64,000 nt of DNA from Desulfobacterales bacterium (GTDB taxonomy: Bacteria; Desulfobacterota; Desulfobacteria; Desulfobacterales; UBA5852), in assembly GCA_963674755.2 (NCBI GenBank), contig CAXXVS010000002.1:1536001-1600000 (forward strand), given 5' to 3'. The notes beneath the pieces were generated by a model, which was given only the letters and a program-made list of their open reading frames with translations, was not told where the DNA came from and did no database searches. Position numbers and translations under genes: made by a program. This document shows positions 24,728 through 46,017 of the stretch, piece after piece; position 1 is the first letter of the stretch, and the number at the start of each line of letters is the position of its first letter.

Positions 24728-24897
24728 AGTGTCCGTCCAGAGATGGTAAATTTCGGTTCTGGCCAAAGCCGCAGCGATTTGAAAACCGACGGCGTAGCCG
24801 TATGAGCGATAGTGTTGCGTAGCTGGGCTACGGCGAGGATTTCCACAGCGCAAGAAAGCCGGCCGGGGCTGAAAGATGCCGTTTATGGATAGGCAGT
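24728..24897 (-). repeat. ~170-bp MITE/REP-like element, copy 1
   Basis: Ends AGTGTCCGTCC...GGATAGGCAGT. Its reverse complement aligns with the element split by IS21 (36910-39301) and with 61285-61427. Confidence 0.7.
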
Positions 24898-24943
24898 GCG
24901 ACTCCTCCTGCCTAGCGGGAGATCTCGGGAAGCCCTTTCGAAG

Positions 24944-25175
24944 GGGGCTTGAAAAAGGTTTCTGAGGTTCGGCTTTTGAATTTCCCTTTGTCCCGCGCTG
25001 AGCATCGGCGCGGCGGACGGATTAAAGCGCGCGGACTGTTTGAGTCCGCCGTAGCCTTGGCGAAGGCGGGCGAGTTTCCGCGTGCTCCGGCCGCCGTGAC
25101 GACGCGCAGGGAGAAGCGGGACACGGGCGTTTTCTTTTGCTTCCGTTTTCTTTCACGTGAAAGAAAATGAAGAAA
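24944..25175. repeat. Structured REP-like intergenic element
   Basis: Hairpin CCGCCGTAGCCTTGGCGAAGGCGG at 25046-25069 and perfect palindrome TTTTCTTTCACGTGAAAGAAAA at 25146-25167. Confidence 0.5.
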
Positions 25176-25316
25176 CCAATTGATGTAAAGGCACCCCGGA
25201 TCGGTCGAACCTCTTCGCGTACTCCATCAGAGGTGGAGGGTTTAGAATAAAGAACAAAAAATGTCTCTGCTGACAAGCGTACCGCAACCCCTTAAAAACA
25301 ACGGAGCGTATACCCG

Positions 25317-26654: not shown

Positions 26655-26728
26655 AGGATCAGGTCTCAATATTTACCAAACCAAAAGTCTGGTTCCAACT
26701 AATTTGTCAGATGTTGAGACCCGACCCC
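26655..26728 (+). repeat. Family A inverted-repeat element, copy 1
   Basis: GGATCAGGTCTCAATATTTACCAAA, ~22-nt spacer, TTTGTCAGATGTTGAGACCCGACCCC. Confidence 0.85.
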
Positions 26729-26985
26729 TGATCCTTTTTCTGGACTAGAAGTGTCTCAAAATAATTTTCCGCGTAACTATGTCGCTGCGACATAATTACG
26801 CTAATAAGCGGTAAAAGACGCAAATTGAGGAAAAGGTTGTGATCTACATATTTTGTTTACTTTAGGTATCACACTGTTATGATGTAAAAATATCAATAAA
26901 CGCGAAGTCATGCATCGAGACCCGAAAAGTGTCTCATATTTCAGTTTCCGTCAAAAAGTTGAAAACTATTTAATATTATAGTTCG

Positions 26986-27372
26986 ATGACCAATATGACA
27001 TCTACAAACAACAATATTCTCATCAATGCTGATGACACCGTAAGAGATATAGTGGACCGGATAATGGCAATTTTATCTGAAAATAAAGCCAATTTATCCA
27101 AATTGAAAAATGAAATATGCCTTCTTTTGGAGCACTTGACAACGGAAGAAGGAAGAACCGATCTAAATTGTAAGGCTGTCGATTATTATTTTATGAATAA
27201 TGACCTGTGGGCTGAAAAAGATTTCCCAGATGAATTGCATGATATTTTTGCGGACATCTCTGGGGCTTTGCACGATACAATTTCATCGCCTGATGTGGCA
27301 AAAAATTTTGATTCAACTCCAGAGCAACTGCTGGAAAGACTAAGAAAGGTTCGCATCGAACCAGGGCATTAA
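26986..27372 (+). CDS. Hypothetical cassette-borne protein
   Basis: 128-aa AT-rich ORF whose stop lies inside the attC site. Confidence 0.7.
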   Translation: MTNMTSTNNNILINADDTVRDIVDRIMAILSENKANLSKLKNEICLLLEHLTTEEGRTDLNCKAVDYYFMNNDLWAEKDFPDELHDIFADISGALHDTISSPDVAKNFDSTPEQLLERLRKVRIEPGH

Positions 27373-27416
27373 GGGCGACGGCCAAAAGCCGCCGCGCCTT
27401 ATGCCCGCCGTTAAGC
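27355..27416 (+). mobile_element. Integron attC recombination site
   Basis: R'' ATCGAAC; arms GGGCATTAAGG and CCTTATGCCC with an extrahelical base; central hairpin GCGACGGC-CAAAA-GCCGCCGC; R' core GTTAAGC. Confidence 0.85.
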
Positions 27417-27430
27417 GTAAATTAAAACTT

Positions 27431-27940
27431 ATGGATATCGAACCAGAAATCAAAGAGCTTTCTGAGTTTTTAGACGAATTCAACAAAGAAAGCGACAGGG
27501 GCGCTGTTCTTAATGCTGCAACAGTCCTTGATGAATGGCTGCTAAGCATAATTAAAGAGTTTTTAGTGGATAACCAATCTTCGAAAGAACTGTTAACTGG
27601 ATTCAATGCTCCACTTGGCACTTTTTCTTCAAGAGCAGCTGCAGCACATGCGCTAGGGTTAATCCAAGACAATGAATTTCAAGAAATCACAACAATTAGA
27701 AAAATCAGAAATGAATTTGGTCACAACTAGAGAGGTATTTCATTCAAAACACAAAAAATCTCAGACCTTGCAAACAATTTACCGTGGCTTGGACCTCCTG
27801 AAATAGAGAAGCAATCAAGCCTAAGAGTGCGTTTTGATTTTGTGGTTGCTGTTTTATTAACAGATCTATTGTGGCGTTCTCGAATGATAAAAAACGAAAA
27901 AAGAGAAATGAAGATTTGGCCAAACAGAGCCAGAAAATAG
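27431..27940 (+). pseudogene. MtlR-like HEPN-family cassette gene with internal TAG
   Basis: ESDRGAVL...PLGTFSSR...IRKIRNEFGH. TAG at 27728-27730, then the frame stays open (RGISF...LPWLGP...) to TAG 27940. Flanked by GTTAAGC (27410) and GCTTAAC (27950). Confidence 0.8.
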
Positions 27941-28055
27941 CTATGGCTCGCTTAACAAAGCCATTAAGACGGACCGCAATCGCGCTCGATGAACGCAAGA
28001 GCAGTAGTCGTGGTGAGAAAACCGTTAACCCAAATTTCAGTGTAGGGATAAGATT

Positions 28056-28187
28056 GGGGTCGCATCTTAATTGTTAACTATTGACATCTGCGTTATATCA
28101 GTTCTCTATACCCTATACCGACCGACGATTCCGAAATAGAATGTGGTAACTTAAACATCGTATAATTAATAATTAAGATGCGACCCT
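28056..28187 (+). repeat. Family B inverted-repeat element, copy 1 (complete)
   Basis: GGGGTCGCATCTTAATTGTT...AATAATTAAGATGCGACCC; internal sequence shared with 36428-36552. Confidence 0.9.
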
Positions 28188-28217
28188 CTTTCTCTTCCTT
28201 ATGTATCGAAAAAACAA

Positions 28218-28859
28218 ATGGGTTTATTAATGAATGACGAAATATCAAAAGCTATAGCAAAAGCCGGCGTTGAGGGAGGGATAGAGGCTGCTAAGGGTTT
28301 TCTTAGAAGATTAGCAGGCCCTGCTGTTGATGAATTAGGATTTCTATTGCAGGATCAAGTAAGGTTTTTTAGGCTTAAAAATCAGCTAAAAATATTATCA
28401 AAAGCCCAAAATATGATACTAAAGTCTGGCCTTTCTCCAGGGGCTATCCCACTTAGGACTTTGATCCCGTTACTGGAGGGGGCAGCTCTAGAGAATGATG
28501 AATATCTATCCAGCAAGTGGGCTGCTTTATTGGCCAATGCATCCATCGGTAAAAATGATATTGCAACGCACCCATCATTCCCACACATCCTTTCGCAACT
28601 CTCACCAGATGAGGCTTTGTTTTTGGATAAATTGGAAACATATGGTGGCGAGACTAATTGGAGTATATTCCGTAGAAATTTTGCTGCCGATTTTTCGAAG
28701 TCTATTGAAGAAGTAGATCAATATTTTGGAAACCTATTTCGCTTAGCACTGTGTCGAATATCTAACAAGGAAGCAGGAAAGCCATATAGCTCGTTATCAA
28801 TTGGGCCATTTGGCAAAAAATTCCTAAAAGCGTGCTCTTCTATCGACAATAATGCATAG
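28218..28859 (+). CDS. Abi-alpha (DUF4393)-like protein
   Basis: IPLLEGAALE...KWAALLANA...HPSFPHILSQLSPDEA. Confidence 0.8.
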   Translation: MGLLMNDEISKAIAKAGVEGGIEAAKGFLRRLAGPAVDELGFLLQDQVRFFRLKNQLKILSKAQNMILKSGLSPGAIPLRTLIPLLEGAALENDEYLSSKWAALLANASIGKNDIATHPSFPHILSQLSPDEALFLDKLETYGGETNWSIFRRNFAADFSKSIEEVDQYFGNLFRLALCRISNKEAGKPYSSLSIGPFGKKFLKACSSIDNNA

Positions 28860-28942
28860 TCAGTTGTTGGCGCATACAGAAAATATTTCTCGATTCTATA
28901 ATATCTTGTTTGATTAACTATTTTTAAATATACTTAGCTATT

Positions 28943-30094
28943 ATGAATAGGCCAATAACCCGCGAAAACCCTATGTTTCGGACAGGAAGCGATATCAATC
29001 TTAACGCTTGTGTAGGTTATAATGGATTTCCGAACATCCACACCTATCAGTTTGGGTACCATCAAGCTGTAGTCTCATTAATTGCGACCGCAAAAGAGAA
29101 GACCTACGATTCGGATTCATTGATTTACCCAATTTTATTTTGTGCAAGGCATGCGATAGAGCTTTTTCTCAAAAAACAAATTTATCTTTTATCAGATGTT
29201 AAGGCTATTACTTTGGATAGTGATTCTGAGAACCGCCTGCTAACTGCACACAGCTTGTATTCTTTATGGAATAATTTCAAAGACCTCTCAAAAATAGATA
29301 AGAGGTATGACTCCTTTATCGATAAATTGGAGCCTCATATTAAATGTTTTTGTGATGTGGATGATACGGGCCAAACTTTTCGATACCCCTTGGATGTAGA
29401 TGGCAAACGTCATCTAACAGAGTTCGGTTGCATCAATATCGGAATTTTCAGCAAAAAATATGAATCGATGTATAAAATCATCGAAGAAGTCGTTCTTCTG
29501 ACTGAGTATATTAAAGCCGAGTACAAACAGGGCACATTTATTAAAGAATTGTCTAGAGAACAAATTTCTGAAATTGCTCACATGCTTCCGATAAGAAGGA
29601 ATTGGGTTACAGATGACTTTTCAAAAGCGAAAAACGATATTTGTGCTGAATATGGCATAGGCTCAAGAACCTTTTCAAGGACTCTTAACCTGATTCAGAA
29701 GCACCGGGAGTTTGCATCATATATTGGGATGGAACTGCCCTTAAATGAGATTACTTCACACGAATTGAAAATATTTATCAATTTGTTTAATAAACACAGA
29801 AAAAGATTCAGAACTGATGATTATATCGCCATTATAAATGATTTCCCAAACGAGGTATGCGAAAACCTTTCGAACGATAATATTTATGCTATTTCGGCTA
29901 TTTTTGACATATCATTTTTTGATTTATTCAGTGAAGAGTATGATTCTGACATTGAAAGAAATAGAAAGCGTGATGATCCATTTGGTATTGTATTCAATAA
30001 TATATCTGTAAGGCGTGGCATTGTCTTAAAACATATAAAACGTGGGCTTGGTAGATTAGGCCAGATAACTTTACTCAAAGTTTTTGACGAATAA
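28943..30094 (+). CDS. Hypothetical protein with divergent HEPN-like N-terminal domain
   Basis: YPILFCARHAIELFLK...HSLYSLW...DDTGQTFRYP pattern; 383 aa, AT-rich. Confidence 0.7.
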   Translation: MNRPITRENPMFRTGSDINLNACVGYNGFPNIHTYQFGYHQAVVSLIATAKEKTYDSDSLIYPILFCARHAIELFLKKQIYLLSDVKAITLDSDSENRLLTAHSLYSLWNNFKDLSKIDKRYDSFIDKLEPHIKCFCDVDDTGQTFRYPLDVDGKRHLTEFGCINIGIFSKKYESMYKIIEEVVLLTEYIKAEYKQGTFIKELSREQISEIAHMLPIRRNWVTDDFSKAKNDICAEYGIGSRTFSRTLNLIQKHREFASYIGMELPLNEITSHELKIFINLFNKHRKRFRTDDYIAIINDFPNEVCENLSNDNIYAISAIFDISFFDLFSEEYDSDIERNRKRDDPFGIVFNNISVRRGIVLKHIKRGLGRLGQITLLKVFDE

Positions 30095-30104
30095 GAAGGA
30101 TCAC

Positions 30105-30184
30105 TGGGTCAGATCTCAACATTTTACAGCCCAGTAATAACGGTTCCAGCAAAATAAAGTTGTCAAACGTTGAGATCAGACTCA
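30105..30184 (+). repeat. Family A inverted-repeat element, copy 2
   Basis: GGGTCAGATCTCAACATTTTACA...TGTCAAACGTTGAGATCAGACTC. Confidence 0.85.
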
Positions 30185-30334
30185 GCGGTTTTTTTAATTT
30201 CAGATATTCGGATGAAATTCCTGTCAATCACTAGTTAGAAATAAAATAATGAGCAGAAACCTTACCAGAATATTTAAAAAATTAAATTTTAAACATCGGA
30301 TTCTACTTTCAAAACACAACGATCGTAGACTCCA

Positions 30335-30919
30335 ATGGAAAGTTTTAGAAAAAAAGCTGAATCAATTTTCAATGAAATAATTCAGCAAGCAAAGGATTGT
30401 AGCTTTTGGGAAAATCTTTATATTCAAAAAAGTCCAGAAAAGTGTAAAACCATATTTGAAGGTGAGAAGTATTTAAATTTCAATATGATTGCACTTTCAT
30501 ATGGGAGTCATCCAACAGATATATCCGTCGAGATATACAAATCTGGAAAAAGAGTAAACGAACGTACAATTTCAGAAACCGGGGGTGCATTCTTAATTTC
30601 CCAGATTCCAAACGGTGGCGTCACTTTTTATCTATATTCTTCTAGTTCTGAATTGCATAAAGCAGATGAATATCCAAAACTGATAAGAGTATACAAAAAG
30701 CCATGTGATGTAAAAGAAAGGCAAATTTGGAGATGTGCAATTCGATTACTAAATTTTTCACATGACACCTCTTATGCTTCTTTCTATCCTTACCATAAAT
30801 ATTTGTATGAGCTTGCGAATAAACATAAAAGAGATTTTTTATTTTTATTGATCGGTGCTTTTATGTCTTATTTTATAGCATTTATTTTTGAAAACTTAAC
30901 AAATATTTTTTCTGGATGA
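30335..30919 (+). CDS. Hypothetical cassette protein with C-terminal TM (possibly frameshifted from ATG 30249)
   Basis: 194-aa ORF bracketed by GTTAGAAAT (30234) and ATTTCTAAC (ends 30932). Confidence 0.65.
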   Translation: MESFRKKAESIFNEIIQQAKDCSFWENLYIQKSPEKCKTIFEGEKYLNFNMIALSYGSHPTDISVEIYKSGKRVNERTISETGGAFLISQIPNGGVTFYLYSSSSELHKADEYPKLIRVYKKPCDVKERQIWRCAIRLLNFSHDTSYASFYPYHKYLYELANKHKRDFLFLLIGAFMSYFIAFIFENLTNIFSG

Positions 30920-30968
30920 AATAATTTCTAACAAGTGCGAAATCGCAGTCTTTTATCGAAAGAGAATG

Positions 30969-31043
30969 AGGGTTGGCTTTTAACATTTTATAAACCAAAA
31001 CTTATGGTTTCAACTAATTTGCTAAATGTTGAAAACTGGCACA
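30969..31043 (+). repeat. Family A inverted-repeat element, copy 3 (degenerate)
   Basis: GGGTTGGCTTTTAACATTTTATAAACCAAAACTTATGGTTTCAACTAATTTGCTAAATGTTGAAAACTGGCAC. Confidence 0.75.
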
Positions 31044-31080
31044 AGATTATTTTCGTAACTTAGTTAGGCGAGAAGAAAAT

Positions 31081-31659
31081 ATGAAAGTAGAAATTATAAT
31101 ACCACTAATTGGTGTACTTCTTGGTTGGTTTCTAAATGAAATCAGTCAGGCAATTAGACAAAGCAGAGAAAATAAACCCTTTTTGGCACAAGCTATTGGT
31201 TCAATTTGTTGCATTTTATTCATACTTGAACGTAAAAGAAACTATTTAAACAGTGCTATCTACGCGGGAAAGCTCAGCGAGCACGGACACGAATTTTTAA
31301 ACTCTATCCTGCAAAACAAAGAAAATGAAATTAGAACCATAAGGGAAAAATCAGTATCAGCTGTTTCAAACCTAGACAAATTTGAACCTTTTATCTCACA
31401 TGAGTTAGACTTTTTCATGTTATATGCCTTAGATCTTGATGAAAAGATACAAAATAAATTACATAATATTGAAACGAACCTTGAAGAAATTCAGCGATTA
31501 GTAAGAGAGTTGAATATTGCTATTAAAAAATTTCATTTTATTATAAAGAAACTGACGTTAAAGCACAGCGTCTCAATGTATTTTAAGTATAGATGTGAAG
31601 CAAGAAAGAATAATAGTGACAAGATAGATTCTTTTGTTGAGGTATTCCAGCAAATTTAA
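31081..31659 (+). CDS. Hypothetical protein with N-terminal TM
   Basis: 192-aa AT-rich ORF starting 11 nt after the core-like GTTAGGC (31063-31069). Confidence 0.7.
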   Translation: MKVEIIIPLIGVLLGWFLNEISQAIRQSRENKPFLAQAIGSICCILFILERKRNYLNSAIYAGKLSEHGHEFLNSILQNKENEIRTIREKSVSAVSNLDKFEPFISHELDFFMLYALDLDEKIQNKLHNIETNLEEIQRLVRELNIAIKKFHFIIKKLTLKHSVSMYFKYRCEARKNNSDKIDSFVEVFQQI

Positions 31660-31673
31660 AGAATAAGAGCCAT

Positions 31674-31748
31674 TGGGTCAGATATCAACATTTTACGAAC
31701 CAGAAATTATGGCTCGAACTAAATTGTCAAATTATTTGATCTAACACG
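31674..31748 (+). repeat. Family A inverted-repeat element, copy 4
   Basis: GGGTCAGATATCAACATTTTACGAACCAGAAATTATGGCTCGAACTAAATTGTCAAATTATTTGATCTAACAC. Confidence 0.8.
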
Positions 31749-31812
31749 GATTCTTTTTTGAGATACGAAGCGCATTTCTTTTCTATTTTCCGAACTCGAT
31801 ATGGAGTAACAA

Positions 31813-32583
31813 ATGAAATGTTTCATTATCATGCCAATTACCACTCCTGCTGAGTGGGCACATCATTATGGCAACGATCCTGACCACTTCTCAAACGTCA
31901 TAGAGTATCTTTTCATTCCTGCAATTAAAGCGGCAAATATGGAACCTATACCACCTAGTTCCGAAGCCTCCCAGATAATCCATTCTGATATTATTTCAAA
32001 GCTTGCTTCTTCAGAAATGGTTCTCTGTGATATTTCGTCTCTAAATTCAAATGTTTTTTTCGAGCTTGGTGTCCGAACGGCCCTTAATAAGCCCGTCTGT
32101 CTTGTTAAAGATGATGTCACAACTAATATTCCTTTCGACACCATACCAATTCAATATGAAACATATAGAAGTGCTCTGACAGTTATGCATCACGAAAATG
32201 ACCTTAAAAGAATCTCTGATCATTTAATAAGAACTCAAGATAAGAACTCAAATTACAACGCAATGTGGAAGGCGTTCGGGATTTCACAGACCGCATCTCC
32301 GCCAGAACCAAGCTCGATTGAGGAAAAACTTGACTTCTTAATTCAACGATCAGATCCTAATTTTGCATTATCTCTCACATGGCTTCGGGAGTTTTCTCCC
32401 AAAGTTGCGACGGTTTTGATAAATGCAGACCTTTATTCACTACGTGAAGTTGCCAACATATCCGAAGAAATGTTTAAAAAGGTAAACGGTATTGGCAACA
32501 TAGAAATCAGTGAGATAAAGCAAGTTCTTGCTAATCATGGACTATCACTAAAATGCCATAAGGCAATGAGGGTCATGTCTTAA
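31813..32583 (+). CDS. Nucleoside 2-deoxyribosyltransferase-like domain fused to an RNA polymerase alpha-CTD-like domain
   Basis: KCFIIMP...CDISSLNSNVFFELGVR...PFD (NDT-like); C-terminal FSPKVATVLINADLYSLREV...VNGIGNIEISEIKQVLANHGLSL. Confidence 0.75.
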   Translation: MKCFIIMPITTPAEWAHHYGNDPDHFSNVIEYLFIPAIKAANMEPIPPSSEASQIIHSDIISKLASSEMVLCDISSLNSNVFFELGVRTALNKPVCLVKDDVTTNIPFDTIPIQYETYRSALTVMHHENDLKRISDHLIRTQDKNSNYNAMWKAFGISQTASPPEPSSIEEKLDFLIQRSDPNFALSLTWLREFSPKVATVLINADLYSLREVANISEEMFKKVNGIGNIEISEIKQVLANHGLSLKCHKAMRVMS

Positions 32584-32640
32584 CACTTAACAAACCAATA
32601 GTTTTCACAGCTAATTTGTCAAATTTTGAGTTCTAAACCC
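32569..32640 (+). repeat. Family A inverted-repeat element, copy 5 (degenerate)
   Basis: GGGTCATGTCTTAACACTTAACAAACCAA...CTAATTTGTCAAATTTTGAGTTCTAAACCC; contains the upstream gene's stop codon. Confidence 0.75.
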
Positions 32641-32671
32641 GGATTCTTTATAATTTATTTTTAATGAGACA

Positions 32672-33670
32672 ATGAGTACTATACATAACGGAAAAGACAA
32701 ATTAACCTTTAGGCGCTTGTTGCTATCTAAAGAATTTTATTTACACGGACTGGAGCATTCACGGTTAAAATCACCTCTTAACAGGATGATTGCTATTCAT
32801 AATTTTCATAATTCCCTTGAAATTGTTTTGAGATCAATATTCTTATATCACGAAATACGTCCGGAAAAGCAGCTAAATATCGACTTTGAATCTATGTTAA
32901 ATGCGATTGATTCTTTTCAATCATTCAAAGAGAATAATGTCAAGCTCCCATACCGACAAGAATTAAGGAGTTTGAATCAAATACGAAATATGGTTCAACA
33001 TCAAGCAGTTGAGCCGGAAGAATCTACTCTTGATGATTGGAGAGTTTTTACTATTAGATTTTTAAGAGAAGCCTTCGATACTTACTTTAGTATCAATTTT
33101 GACGAAGTAACATCAATCCATTTTATACACAATAAAGATTTAAAGAACCTCTTATTAACTGGTAATAAACTTAATAATATAAATAAATATCTCGACTCGG
33201 TAGTTGCTGCTAAATTGGCTTTTATCTACGCATCTTATGCAATCAGTAATTTTTTACCATCTGATGGACTTAATTCTGATTTTTTTGTAATTTCTAGTAT
33301 CTCCTCTATTACGCGTAATATTGATACGATACTTTCACATAAAATAGAAAATGTAATACGTAAAATCTATGATAAAATTGGTGATACCAAACTTTATTCA
33401 TCAATAATATCAAGTGGTGTATCTTTAGCCGACTATAAGCAATATGAGATGCTTACACCATCTATCATCTTAACCTTAGATGGTGGTTACGTTGTACAAA
33501 CAATGAATATGCCAAATCCTGATTTCGAGTCTTCCTCATGGATTTTAAATTTCGTAGAACAATCAATAATTAAATGGCAACTCTCTGGTATCGATCTTAA
33601 TTTAAATGAACGATTAGCATACTCATGCAAAAAATCTAATGAAAATCTTTCTGCTAATATCCCTGTATAA
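32672..33670 (+). CDS. HEPN-like domain protein
   Basis: AIHNFHNSLEIVLR and RNMVQH (RxxxxH) motif. Confidence 0.72.
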   Translation: MSTIHNGKDKLTFRRLLLSKEFYLHGLEHSRLKSPLNRMIAIHNFHNSLEIVLRSIFLYHEIRPEKQLNIDFESMLNAIDSFQSFKENNVKLPYRQELRSLNQIRNMVQHQAVEPEESTLDDWRVFTIRFLREAFDTYFSINFDEVTSIHFIHNKDLKNLLLTGNKLNNINKYLDSVVAAKLAFIYASYAISNFLPSDGLNSDFFVISSISSITRNIDTILSHKIENVIRKIYDKIGDTKLYSSIISSGVSLADYKQYEMLTPSIILTLDGGYVVQTMNMPNPDFESSSWILNFVEQSIIKWQLSGIDLNLNERLAYSCKKSNENLSANIPV

Positions 33671-33684
33671 TGCGGAATACTATT

Positions 33685-33730
33685 GGGGTCGCATCTTAAT
33701 TATTTACTATTGACATCTATCCTATATCAG
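33685..33730 (+). repeat. Family B element, left arm only
   Basis: GGGGTCGCATCTTAATTATTTACTATTGACATCTATCCTATATCAG, then similarity stops. Confidence 0.85.
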
Positions 33731-33838
33731 CTCGCAATAACTATCTAATCCAGTAGATGAAAACCGATTTAGCACACCGGAAAAGAGTCACTTATGCAAC
33801 AAAACAACAGCGCATGTGGCGCCTTGTAGAGGGACCCC

Positions 33839-34180
33839 ATGCTCCGAACCGAAAGCATTACCACTAGAACCACGGATGGCACGGAAGTGGAAATCCGTGG
33901 GAAAATCGCATGGCCGAAGAATCAAGAGCGCCTGCCGCAAGGCTGTTATATCCGAGTCTATTTCAATGATGAAACTGGAAACCGCATCGAGACCACCCCG
34001 AGCTACTACGGAACTCTCCGTGGCAAAACCGGATTGGTTACCTCTGGGCTTATTGAACGGTATATCCTGGAAATCCCGAAAGCAGATTATGAAGATTTCG
34101 AAAAGCGTTGCCTTGATATCTTTTGGGAAGGCATGGGAAAAAACTTTGGAAGGCCAAGGCCCAAGTGGTTAGATAGCTGA
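33839..34180 (+). CDS. Hypothetical protein
   Basis: 113-aa ORF with GAGGG RBS. Confidence 0.6.
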   Translation: MLRTESITTRTTDGTEVEIRGKIAWPKNQERLPQGCYIRVYFNDETGNRIETTPSYYGTLRGKTGLVTSGLIERYILEIPKADYEDFEKRCLDIFWEGMGKNFGRPRPKWLDS

Positions 34181-34228
34181 AAAGGGTCATATATACTTGG
34201 CATTTCCCCATATGGATAGTATTGACAT

Positions 34229-34435
34229 ATGAAAATAAAAGTAGCCCAGGCAAGCGATCGAATTGTAATCAAGCTGGAAAACGGCCGAAATATCGAATTC
34301 TCTTTTACCGCCGCGGAAGACCAGGACACGCCCAGCCTTTGTCGCATATCCACCGATGGCCGAGAAAATACAAGACACGAAACCCACCAATCCGGCAAGT
34401 TGGAGTTTTGGGAATTCAGTTTCCCTGAGAAATAA
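34229..34435 (+). CDS. Small hypothetical protein
   Basis: 68-aa ORF in the same orientation as its neighbours. Confidence 0.45.
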   Translation: MKIKVAQASDRIVIKLENGRNIEFSFTAAEDQDTPSLCRISTDGRENTRHETHQSGKLEFWEFSFPEK

Positions 34436-34465
34436 TAGAAAGAATTGATGAAGGGGCTCTGAGAG

Positions 34466-36442
34466 TTGGAAGAACAAAAATCAAAGCTGGAGAAAGTTGG
34501 TGATGCCTTTCTGGACCGTGAGACGTTTTTCCGCACTCTAATCGAGACCATACCGGACCTTGTTTGGTTGAAAGATCCAGATGGTGTTTTCCTTGCGTGC
34601 AATCGAAGATTTGAACGCTTTTATGGTGCAAAGGAAAAGGATATTTTCGGAAAAACGGACTATGATTTTGTGAGCAAGGAGCAAGCTGACTTTTTCCGTA
34701 AAAATGACTTGGATGCCATCACAAACGGAAAGCCAACGGTAAACGAAGAAGCCGTCACCTACATCAGTGACGGCCATGAGGAATTGCTCGAAACCATTAA
34801 AACACCAATGTACGATTCCCTAGGCAACCTAATTGGCGTGTTGGGTATTGCCCGGGATATAACGGAACGCAAGCGCATCGAAAGAGATCTTCGATTGAGC
34901 GAGGAGCGTCTAAGATTAACGCTGGAGGTCGCCAATATCGGAATCTGGGATTGGGACATTGCCAATGATACGTGGCACGCTTCCCCGATATATTACACCA
35001 TGCTCGGCTATGAACCCGTTTCCGGTCCCTCGGATAGGGAAATATGGCTAAAGCGGGTTCACCCTGAAGACAGGGAAGCCGTTCGAGCAAAAATAAGCAG
35101 TATTCTCAATTTTGAAACCAACGAATATCACTACGAGGCACGCATGAAGCACGCCGACGGCACCTACCGCTGGCATTATGTCATCGGATATGTGCTTGAA
35201 AGGGATAAGGATAACAGGCCGATTCATTTAATCGGGCTTCGGATTGACATCAACGACCGTATCAAAGCGCAAGCCGACAAAGAAAGGCTCCAGACCCAGT
35301 TGACACAGGCCCAGAAAATGGAAGCCATCGGCCGGCTGGCCGGCGGTGTTGCCCATGACTTCAATAACATGTTGGGCGTAATTCTGGGGCAGACAGAGTT
35401 GCAGCTGGATCAAATTGATCCAGCCCAGCCAGTCTTCACAGCCCTGCAGGACATCAGAAAAGCCGCAGAGAAATCAGCCAATCTGACTCGGCAACTGCTG
35501 GCTTTTGCTCGTAAGCAAGCCATTTCCCCAAAGGTGCTTAACTTGAATGACGTGGTTGAGAGCATGATCAAGATGTTGCACCGAATCATTGGCGAGGATA
35601 TCCATCTTGTCTGGTCTCCAGGGAAAACCACGTGGCCGGTCAAGATCGACTCCAGCCAAATTGATCAGATTTTAGCCAACCTATGCGTAAATGCCCGGGA
35701 CAGTATCTCGGGTGTCGGAAAAATCGTCATCGAAACAAGAAACCGCACTTTCGACACGGATTACTGTAACCGGCATCCGGAATTTATACCCGGAGACTAT
35801 GTGATGATGGCCATTAGCGATAGCGGTTGCGGCATGGATCAGGAAATTCTCAATAACATCTTCGAGCCTTTTTTTACGACGAAGGGAGAAGAGAAAGGGA
35901 CCGGCTTAGGTCTTGCCACGGTATATGGCATCATCAAACAAAACAATGGATTTATCAATGTATACAGCGAGCCGCAGCACGGATCGACATTCAAGATTTA
36001 TTTACCACGGCACAGGGACAAGGCCGATGAGCCTGTAAAAACAATTGAGGCATCACCGATAGCGCGCGGTTCCGAGACTGTTCTTGTGGTGGAGGACAAT
36101 GCTCAGCTTCTAACCCTAACCCAGTCAATTTTGGAAAGACAGGGATATACCGTGTTGACTGCAACCTCGCCTGCCGGGGCCTTGCGGTTGGTGGATGAGT
36201 TTGCCGGCCCCATCGATTTGCTTATTACCGATGTGATAATGCCGGAGATGAATGGTCGTGATCTGGCAAAAAAGATAAGATCGCAGCGTTCTGGCGTAAA
36301 ACTGCTCTATATGTCTGGTTACACGGCAGATGCCATTTCTATTAATGGCGTGGTAGACAAGGGCGTCAATTTCATTCAGAAGCCCTTTTCAATAGGGGAA
36401 CTGGCTCGTAAAGTAAGGGATAGTATTGGGGTCGCATCTTAA
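34466..36442 (+). CDS. Cytoplasmic PAS-PAS hybrid histidine kinase
   Basis: PAS domains, AGGVAHDFNN, GTGLGL, REC; TAA stop lies inside the family B repeat. Confidence 0.92.
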   Translation: MEEQKSKLEKVGDAFLDRETFFRTLIETIPDLVWLKDPDGVFLACNRRFERFYGAKEKDIFGKTDYDFVSKEQADFFRKNDLDAITNGKPTVNEEAVTYISDGHEELLETIKTPMYDSLGNLIGVLGIARDITERKRIERDLRLSEERLRLTLEVANIGIWDWDIANDTWHASPIYYTMLGYEPVSGPSDREIWLKRVHPEDREAVRAKISSILNFETNEYHYEARMKHADGTYRWHYVIGYVLERDKDNRPIHLIGLRIDINDRIKAQADKERLQTQLTQAQKMEAIGRLAGGVAHDFNNMLGVILGQTELQLDQIDPAQPVFTALQDIRKAAEKSANLTRQLLAFARKQAISPKVLNLNDVVESMIKMLHRIIGEDIHLVWSPGKTTWPVKIDSSQIDQILANLCVNARDSISGVGKIVIETRNRTFDTDYCNRHPEFIPGDYVMMAISDSGCGMDQEILNNIFEPFFTTKGEEKGTGLGLATVYGIIKQNNGFINVYSEPQHGSTFKIYLPRHRDKADEPVKTIEASPIARGSETVLVVEDNAQLLTLTQSILERQGYTVLTATSPAGALRLVDEFAGPIDLLITDVIMPEMNGRDLAKKIRSQRSGVKLLYMSGYTADAISINGVVDKGVNFIQKPFSIGELARKVRDSIGVAS

Positions 36443-36552
36443 TTATTTACTATTGTAATCTGCCCTATATCAGTTCTCTATACCGACCGACGATTCCGAA
36501 ATAGCGTGAGGCAACTATAACATCGTATAATTAATAATTAAGATGCGACCCT
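36428..36552 (+). repeat. Family B inverted-repeat element (complete)
   Basis: GGGGTCGCATCTTAATTATT...AATAATTAAGATGCGACCC. Confidence 0.9.
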
Positions 36553-37056
36553 TTTTGTCTCCCCAGCCTGACGCTTTAAAGCATTTGGGTTGCTATTAGT
36601 CGCATATTTTGTTAGGTCATCAGGCATACGTTCTCTATGAAGCCGGCCCCCCACCCTCTGGCCGCAATGGCTTAAAACATCTTGCTCCTGCTGTGCAACC
36701 CTGCTGCAAATCTGGACGTCTTTCCCGGGTCCTGAACTTATACTTCGAAAGCAAAAAGAACGCTTCACCTGCCGTTTAGCTTCCGGCACAAGTGCGACAC
36801 CTTCAAGTTCCCGTAGATAATTCCGGCTAAAACGCCCGACGAACTATCCATTCAGCGCTCGTTCTCCATGAAGCTAAAAGCGAGCGTTGGCACATAGCGA
36901 CAGGTTAGATCGTGTCCATCCCGAACGGGCACCTTTTGACCCGGTCCACAGCGCTCTCACTCTTTTGAAATTTTCGCCATAGCTCACCAGGCGACGCTTG
37001 TCAATGGGAATGAAAATTGTACCATTTTCGGGAAACGAAAAGTGTACCACTCCCGC

Positions 37057-37845
37057 TCAGTTAAGGGTTTCGGTTAATGCAGCCGGTGTAGCCGGCGCGG
37101 TGTTAAATTCGTTCTTTGACAAAGTGTGCTTTCTGAGCCGGTAGCTGTGGCCCTTGATGTTGACCACCCGACAGTGGTGGAGCAGCCGGTCGAGAATCGC
37201 GGTGGCGATGACCTGATCGCCGAACAGCTCCTGCCAGTCCCCGAAGCTCTTGTTGGAGGTGATGATGGTGGAGCTTCGTTCGTAGCGGTAGCTGATGAAC
37301 TGGAAGAACAGGTAGGCTTCCTTGCTGTCGATGGGCAGATAGCCCACCTCATCGACCACCACCAGACTGGAGGTCAGATAGGCCTTGTGCCGGGACTGGG
37401 ACTGCTCCTTAAGTTTTCGCATCAGGGCGTCCATGGTCATGAAATAGACCTTGAAGCCGTGATGACAGGCCTTGGTGGCCAATGCGATCGCCAGATGGGT
37501 TTTGCCCACCCCCGGAGGCCCCAGGAAGATCACGTTCTCGTGCTTGGGGATGAAGTCCAGATCGAAGAGCGCCATGACGTCTTTCTTATTGAGATCCGGG
37601 TGGAACGAGAAGTCGTAGGCATCGATGGTTTTGGCCGCCGGAAGGCCCGCGGTCTTCATGGCGGTCTCCACCCGCCGCTTTTCCTTGGCGCCGACTTCCT
37701 CCTCCAGCAGGTGATCCAGGAAAGCCATATATGAGCTCTTGTCGGTTTCGGCCTGCAAAAGGACAGTGTCGAGCACGGCGGCAGCCTGGGTGAGCTTTAG
37801 CCGCTGAAGATTGTCCCGAAGGCGGTCTGTAATCAGTTGGTCCAT
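37057..37845 (-). CDS. istB: IS21 helper ATPase IstB
   Basis: GPPGVGKT, VDEVGY, TSNKSFGDW, AILDRLLHH. Confidence 0.96.
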   Translation of the reverse strand: MDQLITDRLRDNLQRLKLTQAAAVLDTVLLQAETDKSSYMAFLDHLLEEEVGAKEKRRVETAMKTAGLPAAKTIDAYDFSFHPDLNKKDVMALFDLDFIPKHENVIFLGPPGVGKTHLAIALATKACHHGFKVYFMTMDALMRKLKEQSQSRHKAYLTSSLVVVDEVGYLPIDSKEAYLFFQFISYRYERSSTIITSNKSFGDWQELFGDQVIATAILDRLLHHCRVVNIKGHSYRLRKHTLSKNEFNTAPATPAALTETLN

Positions 37846-39110
37846 ACCCCACCTCCTTTCTGGGCCGCCTGTTCGTAGACGGACAGCGGCCTGTAGAGCA
37901 CTTGGGGAAACAGGCTGCCGTTGACCAGACCCCGCGTGGCCTTGCCCTTGCGGCGGCCGTAGGGTGGTGTCTTCGGCGGCTGTTCGCGGCGCAGCTTGAG
38001 GATCTCCTCGATGATGGCCGGATCGGTGATCATCCGCCCCTTCTCCGGGCTCTCGGTGTGGGTGATCAGCAGCCGGTCGTCGTCGTAAATGCGGATGACG
38101 CCGTCCTTGATCCTCAGCAGCACTTTTTTGCCGACCGCTTCCGGCGGCACCTGGTAACGGCTGGCGTCGTAGGAGATCAGGCAGTCTTTGTAGACCTTCC
38201 GGTAGACCTTGATGGCGGTGTCGTAGTCTCTGGGCACCGGGCCAAGGCTGCGGACCTCCTGCTGCCAGCGCATGTCGACGAGCTGCCGGTGAGTACGGTG
38301 CTGGCGCCGGTTGGCGGTCTCCGAGATCCAGTGGAGCAGATCCGCATTGGCCTGGTCGATGCTCTCAAACACATAGCCGCGCCAGAAAGCTTCCCGGATG
38401 TAGTCGATGGGGCGTTCCACCTTGCCTTTGGTCCAGGGGCTATAGGGGGCGCACAGCACCGGCTTGAAGCCGCAGTGGTCGGCAAAATCGGTGAACTCGA
38501 CATTGATGCGCGCTCGCCCATCGGCGCGGCCGGCGAACACATGGCGCATGTTGTCATAGAGCAGTTCGAAAGGCACGCCCCCGAGATACTTGAAGGCCCG
38601 CAAGTGGGCGTCCATAAACGCCGCCAGAGTGCAGCGGGTGACGAACTCGGCGTACATGGCCCGGGAAAATCCGAGAACCAGCAGGAACAGATGCACGGTG
38701 ATGTCGGCGACACCGGCAGCGGCGATCTTAAAGTCGGCCCAGTCCACCTGGCCTTGCAGACCGGGAACCGTCTCGAATCGCAGGAAGGCCTGACGACGAT
38801 TGCGGGCTTTGACGGCCCGCACATAGGTTTTGACCGTGTCGTAGCCGCCGGAATAGCCGAGGTCTTTGATTTTCTGAAAGATCCATGTACCGCGGTAATT
38901 GTCCTGCTGGAGCCAGTCGTCGATCATCTGGTGGTAGGGGGAAAGGATCGATTCCTTGCGCTTGCGTTTACAGTATCGGGGCATGGTGGGATCTGCCAGG
39001 TACTTGGTGACGGTGTTGCGGTGAATGCCAAGCTTCCTGGCAATGGCGCGCATCGTGAAGCCTTGGCGGTGATAGGAATGAATGTCCATGAATGCCTCCC
39101 TGGTGATCAT
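37833..39110 (-). CDS. istA: IS21 transposase IstA
   Basis: N-terminal HTH, RFETVPGLQGQVDW, YDNM, KGKVER. Confidence 0.96.
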   Translation of the reverse strand: MITREAFMDIHSYHRQGFTMRAIARKLGIHRNTVTKYLADPTMPRYCKRKRKESILSPYHQMIDDWLQQDNYRGTWIFQKIKDLGYSGGYDTVKTYVRAVKARNRRQAFLRFETVPGLQGQVDWADFKIAAAGVADITVHLFLLVLGFSRAMYAEFVTRCTLAAFMDAHLRAFKYLGGVPFELLYDNMRHVFAGRADGRARINVEFTDFADHCGFKPVLCAPYSPWTKGKVERPIDYIREAFWRGYVFESIDQANADLLHWISETANRRQHRTHRQLVDMRWQQEVRSLGPVPRDYDTAIKVYRKVYKDCLISYDASRYQVPPEAVGKKVLLRIKDGVIRIYDDDRLLITHTESPEKGRMITDPAIIEEILKLRREQPPKTPPYGRRKGKATRGLVNGSLFPQVLYRPLSVYEQAAQKGGGVWTN

Positions 39111-39379
39111 GGCGGCGCCCTCCTTTAGCAGAGGGTCTTACCACCAATTACACCACCGGGGTGGTACACTTTTCATTCCCATTTTTGGTACACTTTAGCA
39201 TTCCCGCCGACAACGCTGTCGCTCATAGCGCTGCACCGTCGATTTCAAAAACGTTGCGGCCTTGGCCTGAACCAAAGTCTGCAACAGCCGGATGGACACG
39301 AGATAAGGACGACCAACGTTTGGGACTTCGTATGGTCAGATACGAAGCGGATTTTTTTAACACCAGAGGGAGGATAATC

Positions 39380-40534
39380 ATGAGCAAAACTTTGATTTTC
39401 TGCGCTGACGGTACTTGGAACGGACCCGACCAGGATGACGACAACGATGGGGCCCCGGACTTCACCAACGTCTACAAGTTGTTTCTTGGCCTGGAGGGCG
39501 AGCTGAGCCCGGAGACGATTTGTAGTGCCGATGAACAGGAGAAATTTCTGAAGAAAGGGACCCCGTTGGTCCAGGTGGCGAAATACATCCATGGTGTTGG
39601 CGATTCCCGCAACCCCATCCGCAAACTTCTGGGTGGCGCTTTCGGCGCCGGAACCATTGCCCGAATTGTGCGGAGCTACACCTTCTTTTCCCGTCATTAC
39701 ACACCCGGGGATGCCATCGTACTGACCGGTTTCAGTCGAGGGGCATATACGGCACGGGCTTTGGCGGGGCTGATCGCCAGCGAAGGGCTGCTCGCCAAAG
39801 CACGAACCAGGGATAAGGAAGCCGCCTACCGCTGGGGCGCCAAGGCCTGGTATCGATATCGCAGCAAAGCCAGGGGCGCCAAAAAGCCGCGCTTTCTGAA
39901 ACGCTTTGCTGAGGCTATGGCGGACCTGCCGGCATTTGTTTCGGCCGATGATCTGAAGGACAGGGATCTGGTTCCCGTGCAAACCATCAAAGCCGTGGCG
40001 GTGTGGGACACGGTGGGTGCCCTCGGACTGCCCACCTATGAAAACGATGCCCGGGTGGATGCTTTCCGGTTTGCCGACAATCGTTTGAGCAGCAAGGTGG
40101 AATGGGGGTTTCATGCACTCTCTCTTGACGAGCAGCGGGTGGATTTCCTCCCTACGGTGTGGGCAAACCGGAGAAACGTGGTGCAGGTGCTGTTCCCGGG
40201 AGCACACGCCGATGTAGGAGGCGGCTATACCACCGGAGACGGTGAAAGCGGTCTGTCCAACGGGGCCCTGCTGTGGATGGTGGATCAGTTGAAAGGCGTT
40301 GAGGTGCAAACTGCGGATAGCATTGCCGCTTCAAACAAGGCCGACGCCGGGGGTGTCGCCCACCAGCCCTGGCGGCATAAGCCGTTTGATTTGCCAGGTA
40401 AAGCCCACCCCCGGAATTTTGCCGGTATGGCCGTTAAGGAACACACCTCCATTGCCCAGCGTATGGCCTTGCCAAGCGTCGTGGCGGAACCGGGAGATCC
40501 TCCCGGCAAGTACAGGCCGACGAACCGGCCCTGA
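39380..40534 (+). CDS. DUF2235 / Tle1-like alpha/beta hydrolase
   Basis: CADGTWN, GFSRGAYTAR, WDTVGALG, FPGAHADVGGG; GGAGG RBS before ATG 39380. Confidence 0.92.
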   Translation: MSKTLIFCADGTWNGPDQDDDNDGAPDFTNVYKLFLGLEGELSPETICSADEQEKFLKKGTPLVQVAKYIHGVGDSRNPIRKLLGGAFGAGTIARIVRSYTFFSRHYTPGDAIVLTGFSRGAYTARALAGLIASEGLLAKARTRDKEAAYRWGAKAWYRYRSKARGAKKPRFLKRFAEAMADLPAFVSADDLKDRDLVPVQTIKAVAVWDTVGALGLPTYENDARVDAFRFADNRLSSKVEWGFHALSLDEQRVDFLPTVWANRRNVVQVLFPGAHADVGGGYTTGDGESGLSNGALLWMVDQLKGVEVQTADSIAASNKADAGGVAHQPWRHKPFDLPGKAHPRNFAGMAVKEHTSIAQRMALPSVVAEPGDPPGKYRPTNRP

Positions 40535-40632
40535 ACCACTGACGCCCCATGTTTAGAACATAAACCAACCGGGGGTGAAGTCTGCCAAACCATAGCCGTA
40601 CGATTGGAGGACAAAGCATATGATAGCGGTCG

Positions 40633-40878
40633 ATGGGGATTTTATTCCATCAGAAGGCCAGAACAGCGCTTGCCAAACGGGAAGGTCCCAGAGTCGCCCT
40701 CGATGAAGGCGGCCATACCATCGTGCTACGCCGGGGCTCCTTTGGGGAAGCCGTCGCGGAACTGCAGGAATTGCTGCGCGCCAAAGGTTTCGACCTGGCC
40801 ATCGACAGCGATTTCGGTCCTGCCACGGAACTGGCCGTCTTGCTGTTCCAGAAAAATAGCGGCCTTGTCGGGTGGTAG
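40633..40878 (+). pseudogene. Peptidoglycan-binding domain fragment
   Basis: LRRGSFGEAVAELQELL...DSDFGPATELAVLLFQ; ends 3 nt before a family B arm. Confidence 0.6.
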
Positions 40879-40881
40879 TAT

Positions 40882-40906
40882 GGGGTCGCATCTTAATTAT
40901 CAATTA
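40882..40906. repeat. Family B element, single arm
   Basis: GGGGTCGCATCTTAATTATCAATTA; best matches the inverted right arm. Confidence 0.8.
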
Positions 40907-41303
40907 TTCACGAATCCAACATAGACAAATTGGCTATGAATTCGATAACAAAATGGCTGAAGTCTCCGGACGCCCAAGCTACTCTTTCGCCTTTCAGATT
41001 GGGGACCGTCTCAGATCATTCAGCCAAAAACATCTAGTGAACTATCCGGAACACAACCACGACATTATACAGCTGACAACGTACGCATTAATGGGATGAG
41101 CCATAAATTCATTAGGTTTTTTATATTTGGATAACTTCTGTATCAATCATTTCATCTTTTATTATTTTTTCGATTTGCGCACTTTCTTTTTATGTTGCAT
41201 TAAAAACAAACTACATTTGAAAACTTCACCACCTACTGTTAGGAACGCGCAGAAATCCGCGCGCTTCAAAGGAGCATGATAGACCTATCAGGAGGACTTA
41301 TAA

Positions 41304-41627
41304 ATGAGCAACATTATCATCATAACAATCTTCGTATCTGGCATTATTGGAATTAAAAGCCCTATTGTTGCAGGTATTGTCAGTGCATTATTGTTTCCGT
41401 TATATTTCTACTTATTTGATTCTGTTAGTCTTTACAAATTGATACTGTTTGGTCCTGTAGGGTTTATTTTAGGCTATATTTTAGGAAAAATATCCTCCTG
41501 GTTCTTTTCTGGTTTTAAAGGTGGTAAACATAGTGGGGGGCCATCTTACATTGGCGGTGGAGAAAGAGGCAGGCACACTGGTGGTATAGTATATTCTGAT
41601 GATGAAATTAAAAATATGAAAAAATAA
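41304..41627 (+). CDS. Small membrane protein of cassette origin
   Basis: Hydrophobic 107-aa ORF with GGAGG RBS; GATAGAC upstream (41278) and GTCTAAC right after the stop (41629). Confidence 0.75.
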   Translation: MSNIIIITIFVSGIIGIKSPIVAGIVSALLFPLYFYLFDSVSLYKLILFGPVGFILGYILGKISSWFFSGFKGGKHSGGPSYIGGGERGRHTGGIVYSDDEIKNMKK

Positions 41628-41728
41628 AGTCTAACCATTAAAAAGCATATTGATATTCCCGTTATTGTCGTCGGAGGAATTCGGTCACTTGAGGCATATA
41701 ATTCTGACCAAGGAATAAGGAGCACACC

Positions 41729-45541: not shown

Positions 45542-45728
45542 AAAGGAATATGGGGGGGTGATCGCCCATATTTCCCGGGAAAGGTCGCGGGGTCGCCATT
45601 CACAAAGGACTCGCAGGGACGGGCTACCTTGGTTTTATCCAAGCTAAGTATTGAAATCTCATCTGCTAAATCTGTATTCCCTGCTCGCCTGTGATGGTGG
45701 GCGTTAGACCGATTAGGAGAACCTCTAT

Positions 45729-45901
45729 ATGAGCAACATCATCATCAGAACAATCTTCGTATCGGGCATCATTGGGATTTAAAGCCCTATGGTTGCCGGT
45801 ATTGTCAGTGCATTATTGTTTCCGTTATATTTCTACTTATTTGACTCCGTTAGTCTTTACAAATTGATACTGTTTGATCCTGTAGGGTTTATTTTAGGCT
45901 A
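45729..45901 (+). pseudogene. Truncated duplicate of the 41304-41627 membrane gene
   Basis: Near-identical 5' ~170 nt with an early TAA (ATT AAA to ATT TAA); preceded by core GTTAGAC at 45703-45709. Confidence 0.88.
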
Positions 45902-46017
45902 AATAAATATTTCAAAACGCATTATTTCAAAGGGTGCAATGAAGGCATGGCATCAACGCCGATACTATCATTAGTTCATGCCGACATTGAGAATAGGGAT
46001 TCGCGGGATAAACAACC

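Follow-up and report, generated by a model that had tools for sequence, protein, structure and literature searches.

Y1 transposases of the TIRYT kind, together with the terminal inverted repeats (TIRs) around them, make up the TIRtrons, known but little-studied single-strand-DNA transposons. In the consulted sections of Di Nocera et al. (2013; PMC3733652), the TIR repeat families are also described as singles, dimers and clusters, and some TIRs are reported to lack the start motif GGGGWSAS. The consulted part of Quentin et al. (2018; PMC6006769) places TIRYT in subgroup 2.1.2 of TnpA-Y1 subclass 2.1. Here we relate these elements to a gene array in a Desulfobacterales bacterium (assembly GCA_963674755.2, contig CAXXVS010000002.1, positions 1,536,001 to 1,600,000). 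This full 64,000-nt stretch is referred to as the window, and the span studied is 26655..40906.

An initial annotation of the window had described about ten mostly AT-rich plus-strand genes separated by two families of palindromic repeats, A and B, and had proposed a new integron-like capture system that does without full attC sites. The description of the genes fits 26.99-34.18 kb, where nine genes lie in DNA of 32-40% GC per kb. It does not fit beyond 34.2 kb, where a mosaic of 46-61% GC (a PAS hybrid kinase, a minus-strand IS21 element and a Tle1-like gene) forms no array. The analysis reveals two known kinds of mobile DNA layered on one another, rather than a demonstrated new gene-capture system, and the array is probably a decayed integron colonised by non-autonomous TIRtron derivatives (minis).

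The integron relic at the head of the array

By sequence comparison, the array begins with an integron relic of ordinary type, comprising an intI tail, an attI, a cassette, an attC, a second cassette and half an attC. The 245 bp 3′ of the first repeat, A1, are homologous to DNA directly 3′ of intI in other genomes. Alignment with intI 3′ ends identifies what is left of a deleted integron integrase gene, its last three codons (26740..26748, +), followed by an integron leader (26749..26987, +) that ends at the attI crossover (GTT at 26981), the point where homology to three other leaders also ends. Among the 31 leaders examined (3 of the 30 loci of one leader set were left out), the same leader stands directly 3′ of a full-length intI in 4 of 4 cases. 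A predicted attI site thus precedes the first cassette, while only three codons remain of the integrase gene beside it. No match to a tyrosine integrase or a Y1 transposase was obtained in the window, as the initial annotation had stated; an intact IntI that scores as an integron integrase is encoded ~780 kb away on the same contig.

The first cassette gene (26995..27372, +) has no Pfam match, and the 7-nt core at 26981 before it and the first 7 nt of the attC that follows are exact reverse complements. This complete attC (27355..27416, +) scores 33.2 bits (E 2e-4) with a covariance model for which 17 other attCs of the host genome were used. The second cassette gene (27431..27940, +) shows weak MltR/HEPN-like matches and an internal stop at 27728; it is bounded by an exactly complementary core pair (chance 0.004) and followed by the left half of a truncated attC (27950..27980, +; half-site score 12.7, p=0.006). 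A frameshifted gene at 30234..30932 (+) is a probable cassette remnant, with exactly complementary cores at 30234 and 30926 (chance 0.004); the rest of its attC does not score. The covariance model found no second significant complete attC in the 26-47 kb searched. With one complete, one half and one core-only attC among nine genes, rather than an attC after each cassette, and with three of the nine genes broken, this is a relic and not a working array. The absence of an integrase gene stands; for the head of the array, the idea of a new platform working without full attC sites does not: the integrase remnant, the attI leader and the complete attC at 27355-27416 had been overlooked.

At 3 of 27 intI-truncated leaders (in the window, in G001 and at C1:481.5 kb; by eye), a two-armed mini sits at the intI break. 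A looser TIR pattern gave 11 of 27 leaders but also matched 14.7% of random windows, and only the three two-armed cases were kept.

Several observations concern integrons elsewhere in these genomes. Cassettes downstream of intI follow a genus-wide pattern (G000:C2:2339253-2340566 and about ten other sites). The leader, which contains an internal palindrome, is scattered in intI-less copies, with 11 matches in the host genome (reverse self-matches included) and matches in 10 of 12 same-genus genomes. A second intI-less array (L037 3100-13400; G000:C1:722-732 kb) has the same leader, at least six attCs, and three B and two C minis (family C is described below); a second attI-like core lies 3′ of the C mini at C1:730626.

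Repeat families and their transposases

To judge from where they recur, the arms of families A and B are terminal inverted repeats from TIRtrons, elements whose TIRYT enzymes join a Y1 domain to a DnaA-like helix-turn-helix. A B-arm scan of genome contigs gave at least 126 matching stretches, of which 80 were retrieved and 46 left aside. In a same-genus genome (L019), B arms enclose a gene for a 325-aa Y1 protein whose stop lies within the right arm; five more distinct full B-ended TIRtrons were present among the 80, and Y1 sequence in 26 of them. L086 and L113 are part-deleted intermediates between full B-ended TIRtrons and minis. A arms bound a Y1 gene in L244 and L247 (full or left-anchored TIRtrons). 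Both the B-ended and the A-ended enzymes match Pfam Y1_Tnp and Bac_DnaA_C, the latter a C-terminal DnaA-like helix-turn-helix as in subgroup 2.1.2. Read from these sequences, the minis are the short end of an internal-deletion series of TIRtrons. The earlier assignment of the repeats to a trans-acting Y1/HUH transposase family with GGGG ends was well founded, since relatives carry the cognate gene between identical arms.

All nine repeat positions of the initial annotation are confirmed, and A1-A5, B1 and B3 are two-armed minis. A1 (26655..26728, -) occupies the site of the deleted intI and has arms of the type seen in L244 and L247. A2 (30105..30185, -), A4 (31674..31748, -) and A5 (32569..32641, -) are recognised by their A-family arms, and A3 (30969..31042, -) takes the expected attC place of the 30234 cassette; A strands are inferred from the arm bearing a TTGACA-like motif. 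B1 (28056..28186, +; 131 bp) has the ends of full TIRtrons, and in its 3′ part there is a weak match to the TIRYT C-terminus (E 0.015). The B-arm pattern identifies B2 (33685..33740, +), a left arm only, and B3 (36428..36551, +; 124 bp). B4 (40882..41100, -) is a single right-end-type arm, opposite in orientation to the other B elements, plus ~200 bp common to four other genome copies; a reading of B4 as a TIRYT C-terminus was rejected as the protein-level match is not significant. The B elements had been described as palindromes, which holds for B1 and B3 and not for the single arms B2 and B4. Four more B4-type single arms lie between AT-rich genes (G000:C2:1187391, C2:1189230, C1:1288456 and C2:707517), three of them having tyrosine-integrase genes or fragments within ~5 kb; the closest match to the attC model, in the C2:707517 locus, is weak (E 0.03).

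The five A copies are co-oriented and share a spacer, as first described, and are 58-73% identical (27-42% diverged). They form a true subfamily, held-out copies scoring 33.5-53.4 bits against 20.4-28.5 for the best match elsewhere in the genome. Each has the two arms of an inverted repeat, but the arms are decayed, with 15-20 of 24 positions pairing as against 22 of 24 in B1 and B3. The sequence GGGGTC-N3-TCTYAA, attributed to both families, is exact at five places in the window, namely the four listed B arms and, in family A, the right arm of A1 only. The A arm consensus fits GGGGWSAS, with several copies decayed, and the B arm has one mismatch, at position 7; the arms begin GGGG/GGGT, without the GTAG-tagged short palindrome that marks repetitive extragenic palindromes (REPs) and REPINs. 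All five A copies terminate in a T-run, and one of the five (A2) scores as terminator-like. Minis as carriers of promoters were rejected, promoter-like sites being at chance level (29 vs 29.2 expected). The reported gaps of 10, 49, 14, 14 and 3 nt between stop and arm (the last at 40878/40882) hold. The stops at 32583 and 36442 do fall within A5 and B3, but the A5 case apparently results from a frameshift, because close homologues of the 31813 gene end before this position.

The host genome has eight RAYT-like Y1 matches (REP-associated tyrosine transposases), none in the window, and one of the seven long genes inspected bears arms of a third family, C. Family C comprises 17 near-identical 62-bp minis at several loci, all on the plus strand and matching the TIRYT at C1:916398 (for example G000:C1:729683 and 730626, C3:2475141-2494345, C3:1419427-1436311, and others). 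Their flanks are conserved, mostly TAAT on the left and AAG on the right. They occur clustered within other attC arrays or close to these; some lie inside genes, others tens of bases past intact attCs. At G000:C2:1977406-1978105 an IS200-type element is inserted within a family-C mini, and in L021 (1501-2272) a B mini lies directly 5′ of a shorter REP-type Y1 gene of another subclass and 3′ of an intI fragment.

Two features bear on enzyme action. The outer junction, i.e. flank plus first arm bases, is tandemly duplicated at 12 of 89 arms compared with 10 of 1780 controls, in up to four copies (G000:C1:917375; L025, L063, L077, L088, L096, L101, L115, L119 and L121). Such duplications fit repeated cutting at the ends and would point to an enzyme acting there. 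In addition, TIRYT genes lie on the GC-skew strand in 7 of 7 cases, which offers a replication-linked explanation of shared orientation without a cassette model.

Landing, capture and rival readings

The initial annotation took the hairpins for junctions of repeated gene capture. The comparisons lend this little support, as a B element stands at a different junction in a related contig and none of eight homologue loci carries a repeat. In this contig, from a sediment study and 91-92% identical, the kinase gene continues to 36414 and is followed by ~190 unplaced bases, the 41127-41635 cassette, 11 bases and then B, which begins at the equivalent of 36418. B3 is missing at the kinase end, and B stands after the cassette instead (one contig); the 4.7-kb B3-B4 block is absent, with its left edge at B3 and an ill-defined right edge. 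The position of B thus differs between related genomes, and B moves independently of the gene next to it. The minis resemble insertions that hop locally, and the 62-bp C minis are found inside genes as well. Removal of eight overlapping duplicates from the 80 retrieved B loci left 72 for the attC, unit-sharing, stop-distance and target-motif counts. Of 83 B arms, 18 have a stop within 30 nt; the control figure is 603 of 5743 positions (10.5%). No gene-plus-arm unit was shared between any of the 86 loci compared, paralogous kinases and same-genus neighbourhoods apart.

Other comparisons are less direct. At the eight homologue loci neither a repeat nor an attC stands beside the gene, a weak test since the homologues are distant (25-66%); they came from 1 of 200, 2 of 250, 2 of 230 and 1 of 220 other genomes, plus 2 loci and 0 loci in viral contigs. 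The alignment across strains that had been suggested yielded no syntenic locus among the matches listed for 12 same-genus genomes (185 weaker matches lay outside the list), and one related contig, in which B had moved alone. Genome-wide scatter of the repeats, named at the outset as grounds for abandoning the capture idea, was found in part: there are 67 TIR-type sites in the genome, yet AT-rich accessory DNA is favoured. Joints in runs X1-X3 were of repeats and other organisms and gave no circle, contigs being uninformative on absence.

Under the preferred reading of a decayed integron colonised by minis, IntI would have built the first cassettes and possibly more. A TIRYT acting in trans may later have cut and rejoined single-stranded minis near the hairpin by established HUH chemistry (PMC8266576), by analogy with IS200/IS605 and TnpA-REP. 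Copies would have hopped locally in one orientation, the survivors lying mainly at gene 3′ ends, the tolerated gaps of a dense array. Deletions beside and between minis could then have removed intI and most attC sequence, freezing the array. The repeats would thus mark junctions because they landed there and eroded them, and not because each brought a gene.

Several findings weigh against this reading. Four junctions in a row each hold a single A copy (A2-A5), and the spacer of these copies is locus-specific. That spacer is unmatched in 150 other genomes (27 candidates scored per genome, strict filters), where the A model gave arm-level matches only, in 5 of the 150; an exact spacer pattern gave three matches in metagenomes, none with arms. 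The genes at 28218, 28943, 31813 and 32672 lack an attC remnant both here and at the eight distant homologue loci, and their delivery by IntI is therefore not established. Among 202 proteins screened, one homologue of the 31813 gene (81% identical) has as its last four residues a peptide that could be encoded by an A arm (protein sequence only). Neither the window array nor B1-B3 obeys the skew rule. A Y1 transposase with the same arms was found in relatives, but A and B arms are missing at the seven long host-genome Y1 genes whose flanks were inspected. Finally, no assay of any TIRYT was found in the parts of the literature consulted.

Some of these findings would be expected if TIRYT drove the capture itself, the A minis serving as cassette delimiters once A1 had replaced intI, and gene-plus-mini units (A2-A5, B2) being added or shuffled in trans. 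One A copy per junction with a private spacer, four genes with no trace of attC and the arm-like peptide end of the 31813 homologue all suit this scheme, as do stops ~8-14 nt from an arm at four of five junctions (the 31813 value in the shifted frame). TnpA-REP cleaves at variable, distant sites and could carry flanking DNA, according to the consulted part of PMC8266576. Nonetheless we consider TIRYT-driven capture unlikely, given the lack of a shared gene-plus-arm unit, repeats at none of the eight homologue loci, a B element that moves without its neighbour, A copies that are diverged and decayed, and the broken state of a third of the genes. A wider form of this idea, in which TIRYT minis take over dead integrons, is improbable as well: a mini would replace intI and detach the attI-plus-cassette block, and its amplified copies would become delimiters for HUH-mediated gene addition and shuffling. 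The minis may alternatively be passive joints, old repeats that host recombination used as homology or that were retained as hairpins resembling terminators, TIRYT not having acted on the locus recently. The age and decay of the A copies, their T-runs, the terminator score of A2 and the REP-like dimers and clusters of TIR repeats in the consulted part of PMC3733652 agree with such a role. We regard it as quite doubtful, since only one A copy of five is terminator-like, promoter-like sites are at chance, the initial multiplication of copies is left unexplained and the junction duplications point to enzyme action at the ends.

Minis might instead target attC specifically, as IS1111-attC elements do, and destroy it on insertion. 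A3 lies between complementary cores, a B mini follows the left part of an attC at C1:726487 (by eye), and the sediment-contig B begins 11 nt past an attC inverse core; an attC at E<=0.01 is present in 9 of the 72 B loci, in four of them within ~120 bp of the arm. Half-attCs beside arms are, however, not enriched (4 on the left and 3 on the right of 78 arms, five further loci without arm continuation being left out, vs 19 and 16 of 234 control windows). Of the 67 TIR-type sites, a list from loose patterns with some chance matches, 14 lie within 3 kb of an attC, where 1.1 are expected at random and 9.0 after GC matching, a control that is partly circular because the AT-rich DNA consists in large part of arrays. 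None of these sites falls in the intact integron at C2:2.32-2.34 Mb, and no fixed target motif exists in 89 B-arm flanks. A fixed GGA target 5′ of B arms was rejected (34 of 89 near vs 21-22 of 89 farther out, at no conserved position; a purine-rich bias remains), as was attC targeting by family B with a fixed insertion position. Targeting of attC is largely refuted family-wide and very unlikely here; the preference of the minis is for accessory DNA, not for attC.

Neighbouring genes and comparison with known systems

The remaining genes of the array are all on the plus strand. An Abi_alpha/PDC-S47-like putative defence gene (28218..28859), beside which no attC was found, is followed by a 383-aa gene without a Pfam family (28943..30094; stop 10 nt before A2). 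A 192-aa gene, also without a Pfam family (31081..31659), stops 14 nt before A4; the nucleoside-deoxyribosyltransferase-like gene with a tail resembling the C-terminal domain of the RNA polymerase alpha subunit (31813..32583) runs into A5, probably by frameshift; a 332-aa gene, one homologue of which is named HEPN-domain protein (32672..33670), stops 14 nt before B2; and a 113-aa gene without a Pfam family (33839..34180) ends the array. Several array genes thus look defence-related, going by sequence likeness to Abi_alpha/PDC-S47 and by the homologue named HEPN protein.

Beyond the array, the last codons and stop of the PAS hybrid histidine kinase gene (34466..36442, +) are supplied by the B3 arm. 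An unrelated kinase in L076 has the same arm-encoded ending; a common kinase-plus-B unit was rejected, since the L076 kinase is a paralogue (67%) whose arm is followed by a different element, and the case is read as an independent insertion. An IS21-family element (istA, istB; 37026..39183, -) has a 98.6% identical copy in L041 and is followed by a gene with a Tle1-like phospholipase domain (PF09994; 39161..40534, +). A second alpha/beta-hydrolase gene (PGAP1-like; 44051-45541) lies ~3.5 kb from the latter. A further cassette remnant (41304..41635, +) lies outside the span first annotated; an attC right half (p=0.001) comes before its partial second copy at 45705. The duplication itself (41280-41479 vs 45705-45904) is 200 bp long and 91% identical and spans the first part of a cassette for a small membrane protein; its second copy is frameshifted and truncated. 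Upstream, at ~24895-25250, lies a ~350-bp non-coding repeat with many 75-90% identical copies in the genome and in all 12 same-genus genomes searched, possibly a MITE (a miniature transposable element with inverted repeats) or a structured RNA family.

The two arm families are additions to a known kind, TIRtrons, located in an integron relic. The locus is a clear example of integron death, in which TIRYT minis occupy the ends of genes and the break in intI, and attC sites erode; such erosion would hide former cassette arrays from attC-based searches. The comparison also provides matched pairs of enzyme and substrate (L019 with B, L244 with A and, the best pair, C1:916398 with C) and adds two TIRYT features open to testing, strand bias and a tandemly duplicated outer junction. 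Should gene-plus-mini units be mobile after all, they would offer a new route for assembling defence islands. A takeover of dead integrons, if true, would be a second, attC-independent route extending defence-gene arrays and a first function for subclass 2.1 Y1 enzymes.

IS1111-attC elements, group IIC-attC introns and MITEs depend on an IS110-type recombinase, a reverse transcriptase and a DDE transposase, respectively. As with IS1111-attC elements, group IIC-attC introns and also the MITE-flanked integrons of PMC3934969, mobile elements here occupy cassette junctions or integron truncation points. The first two are attC-specific; family B is not. The locus further resembles a sedentary integron relic or CALIN (cluster of attC sites lacking an integrase), as outlined in the consulted sections of PMC12444791, in its attI leader, attC, promoter-less co-oriented cassettes and an intI missing locally and intact elsewhere. 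It differs in its single complete attC, which is below a cluster, in the retained attI, in later junctions occupied by TIR minis and in four genes without a cassette signature.

No published description linking TIRYT elements with integrons was found in a search that left most subscription papers and supplements outside its reach. The repeats share with the TIRtrons and TIRYT of PMC3733652 and PMC6006769, as far as the consulted parts describe them, GGGG-led terminal inverted repeats, a Y1 enzyme with a DnaA-like helix-turn-helix whose stop overlaps the right repeat, and free singles, dimers and clusters. Unlike published TIRtrons, the window locus is without a transposase gene, and the B arm departs from GGGGWSAS at position 7. 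The consulted TIRtron descriptions, for which Figure 9 and the supplements may list these arms, mention neither integron cassette junctions as sites nor a spacer subfamily private to one locus. REPtrons and REP, BIME (bacterial interspersed mosaic element) and REPIN sequences (TnpA-REP groups 2.2 and 2.5), in the consulted part of PMC8266576, are likewise non-autonomous hairpins spread in trans by a Y1 HUH enzyme, often past stops; the window arms differ in being long TIRs without the GTAG tetranucleotide, in tens rather than hundreds of copies, and belong to a different enzyme subclass. At prochlorosin clusters (bioRxiv 10.1101/2020.03.09.984088), subclass 2.1 genes and C-terminal fragments are similarly interspersed in a variable gene array of fixed orientation. 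That study found no inverted repeats, and its evidence of causation was later called not strong; in the present array it is the repeats, not the genes, that mark the array.

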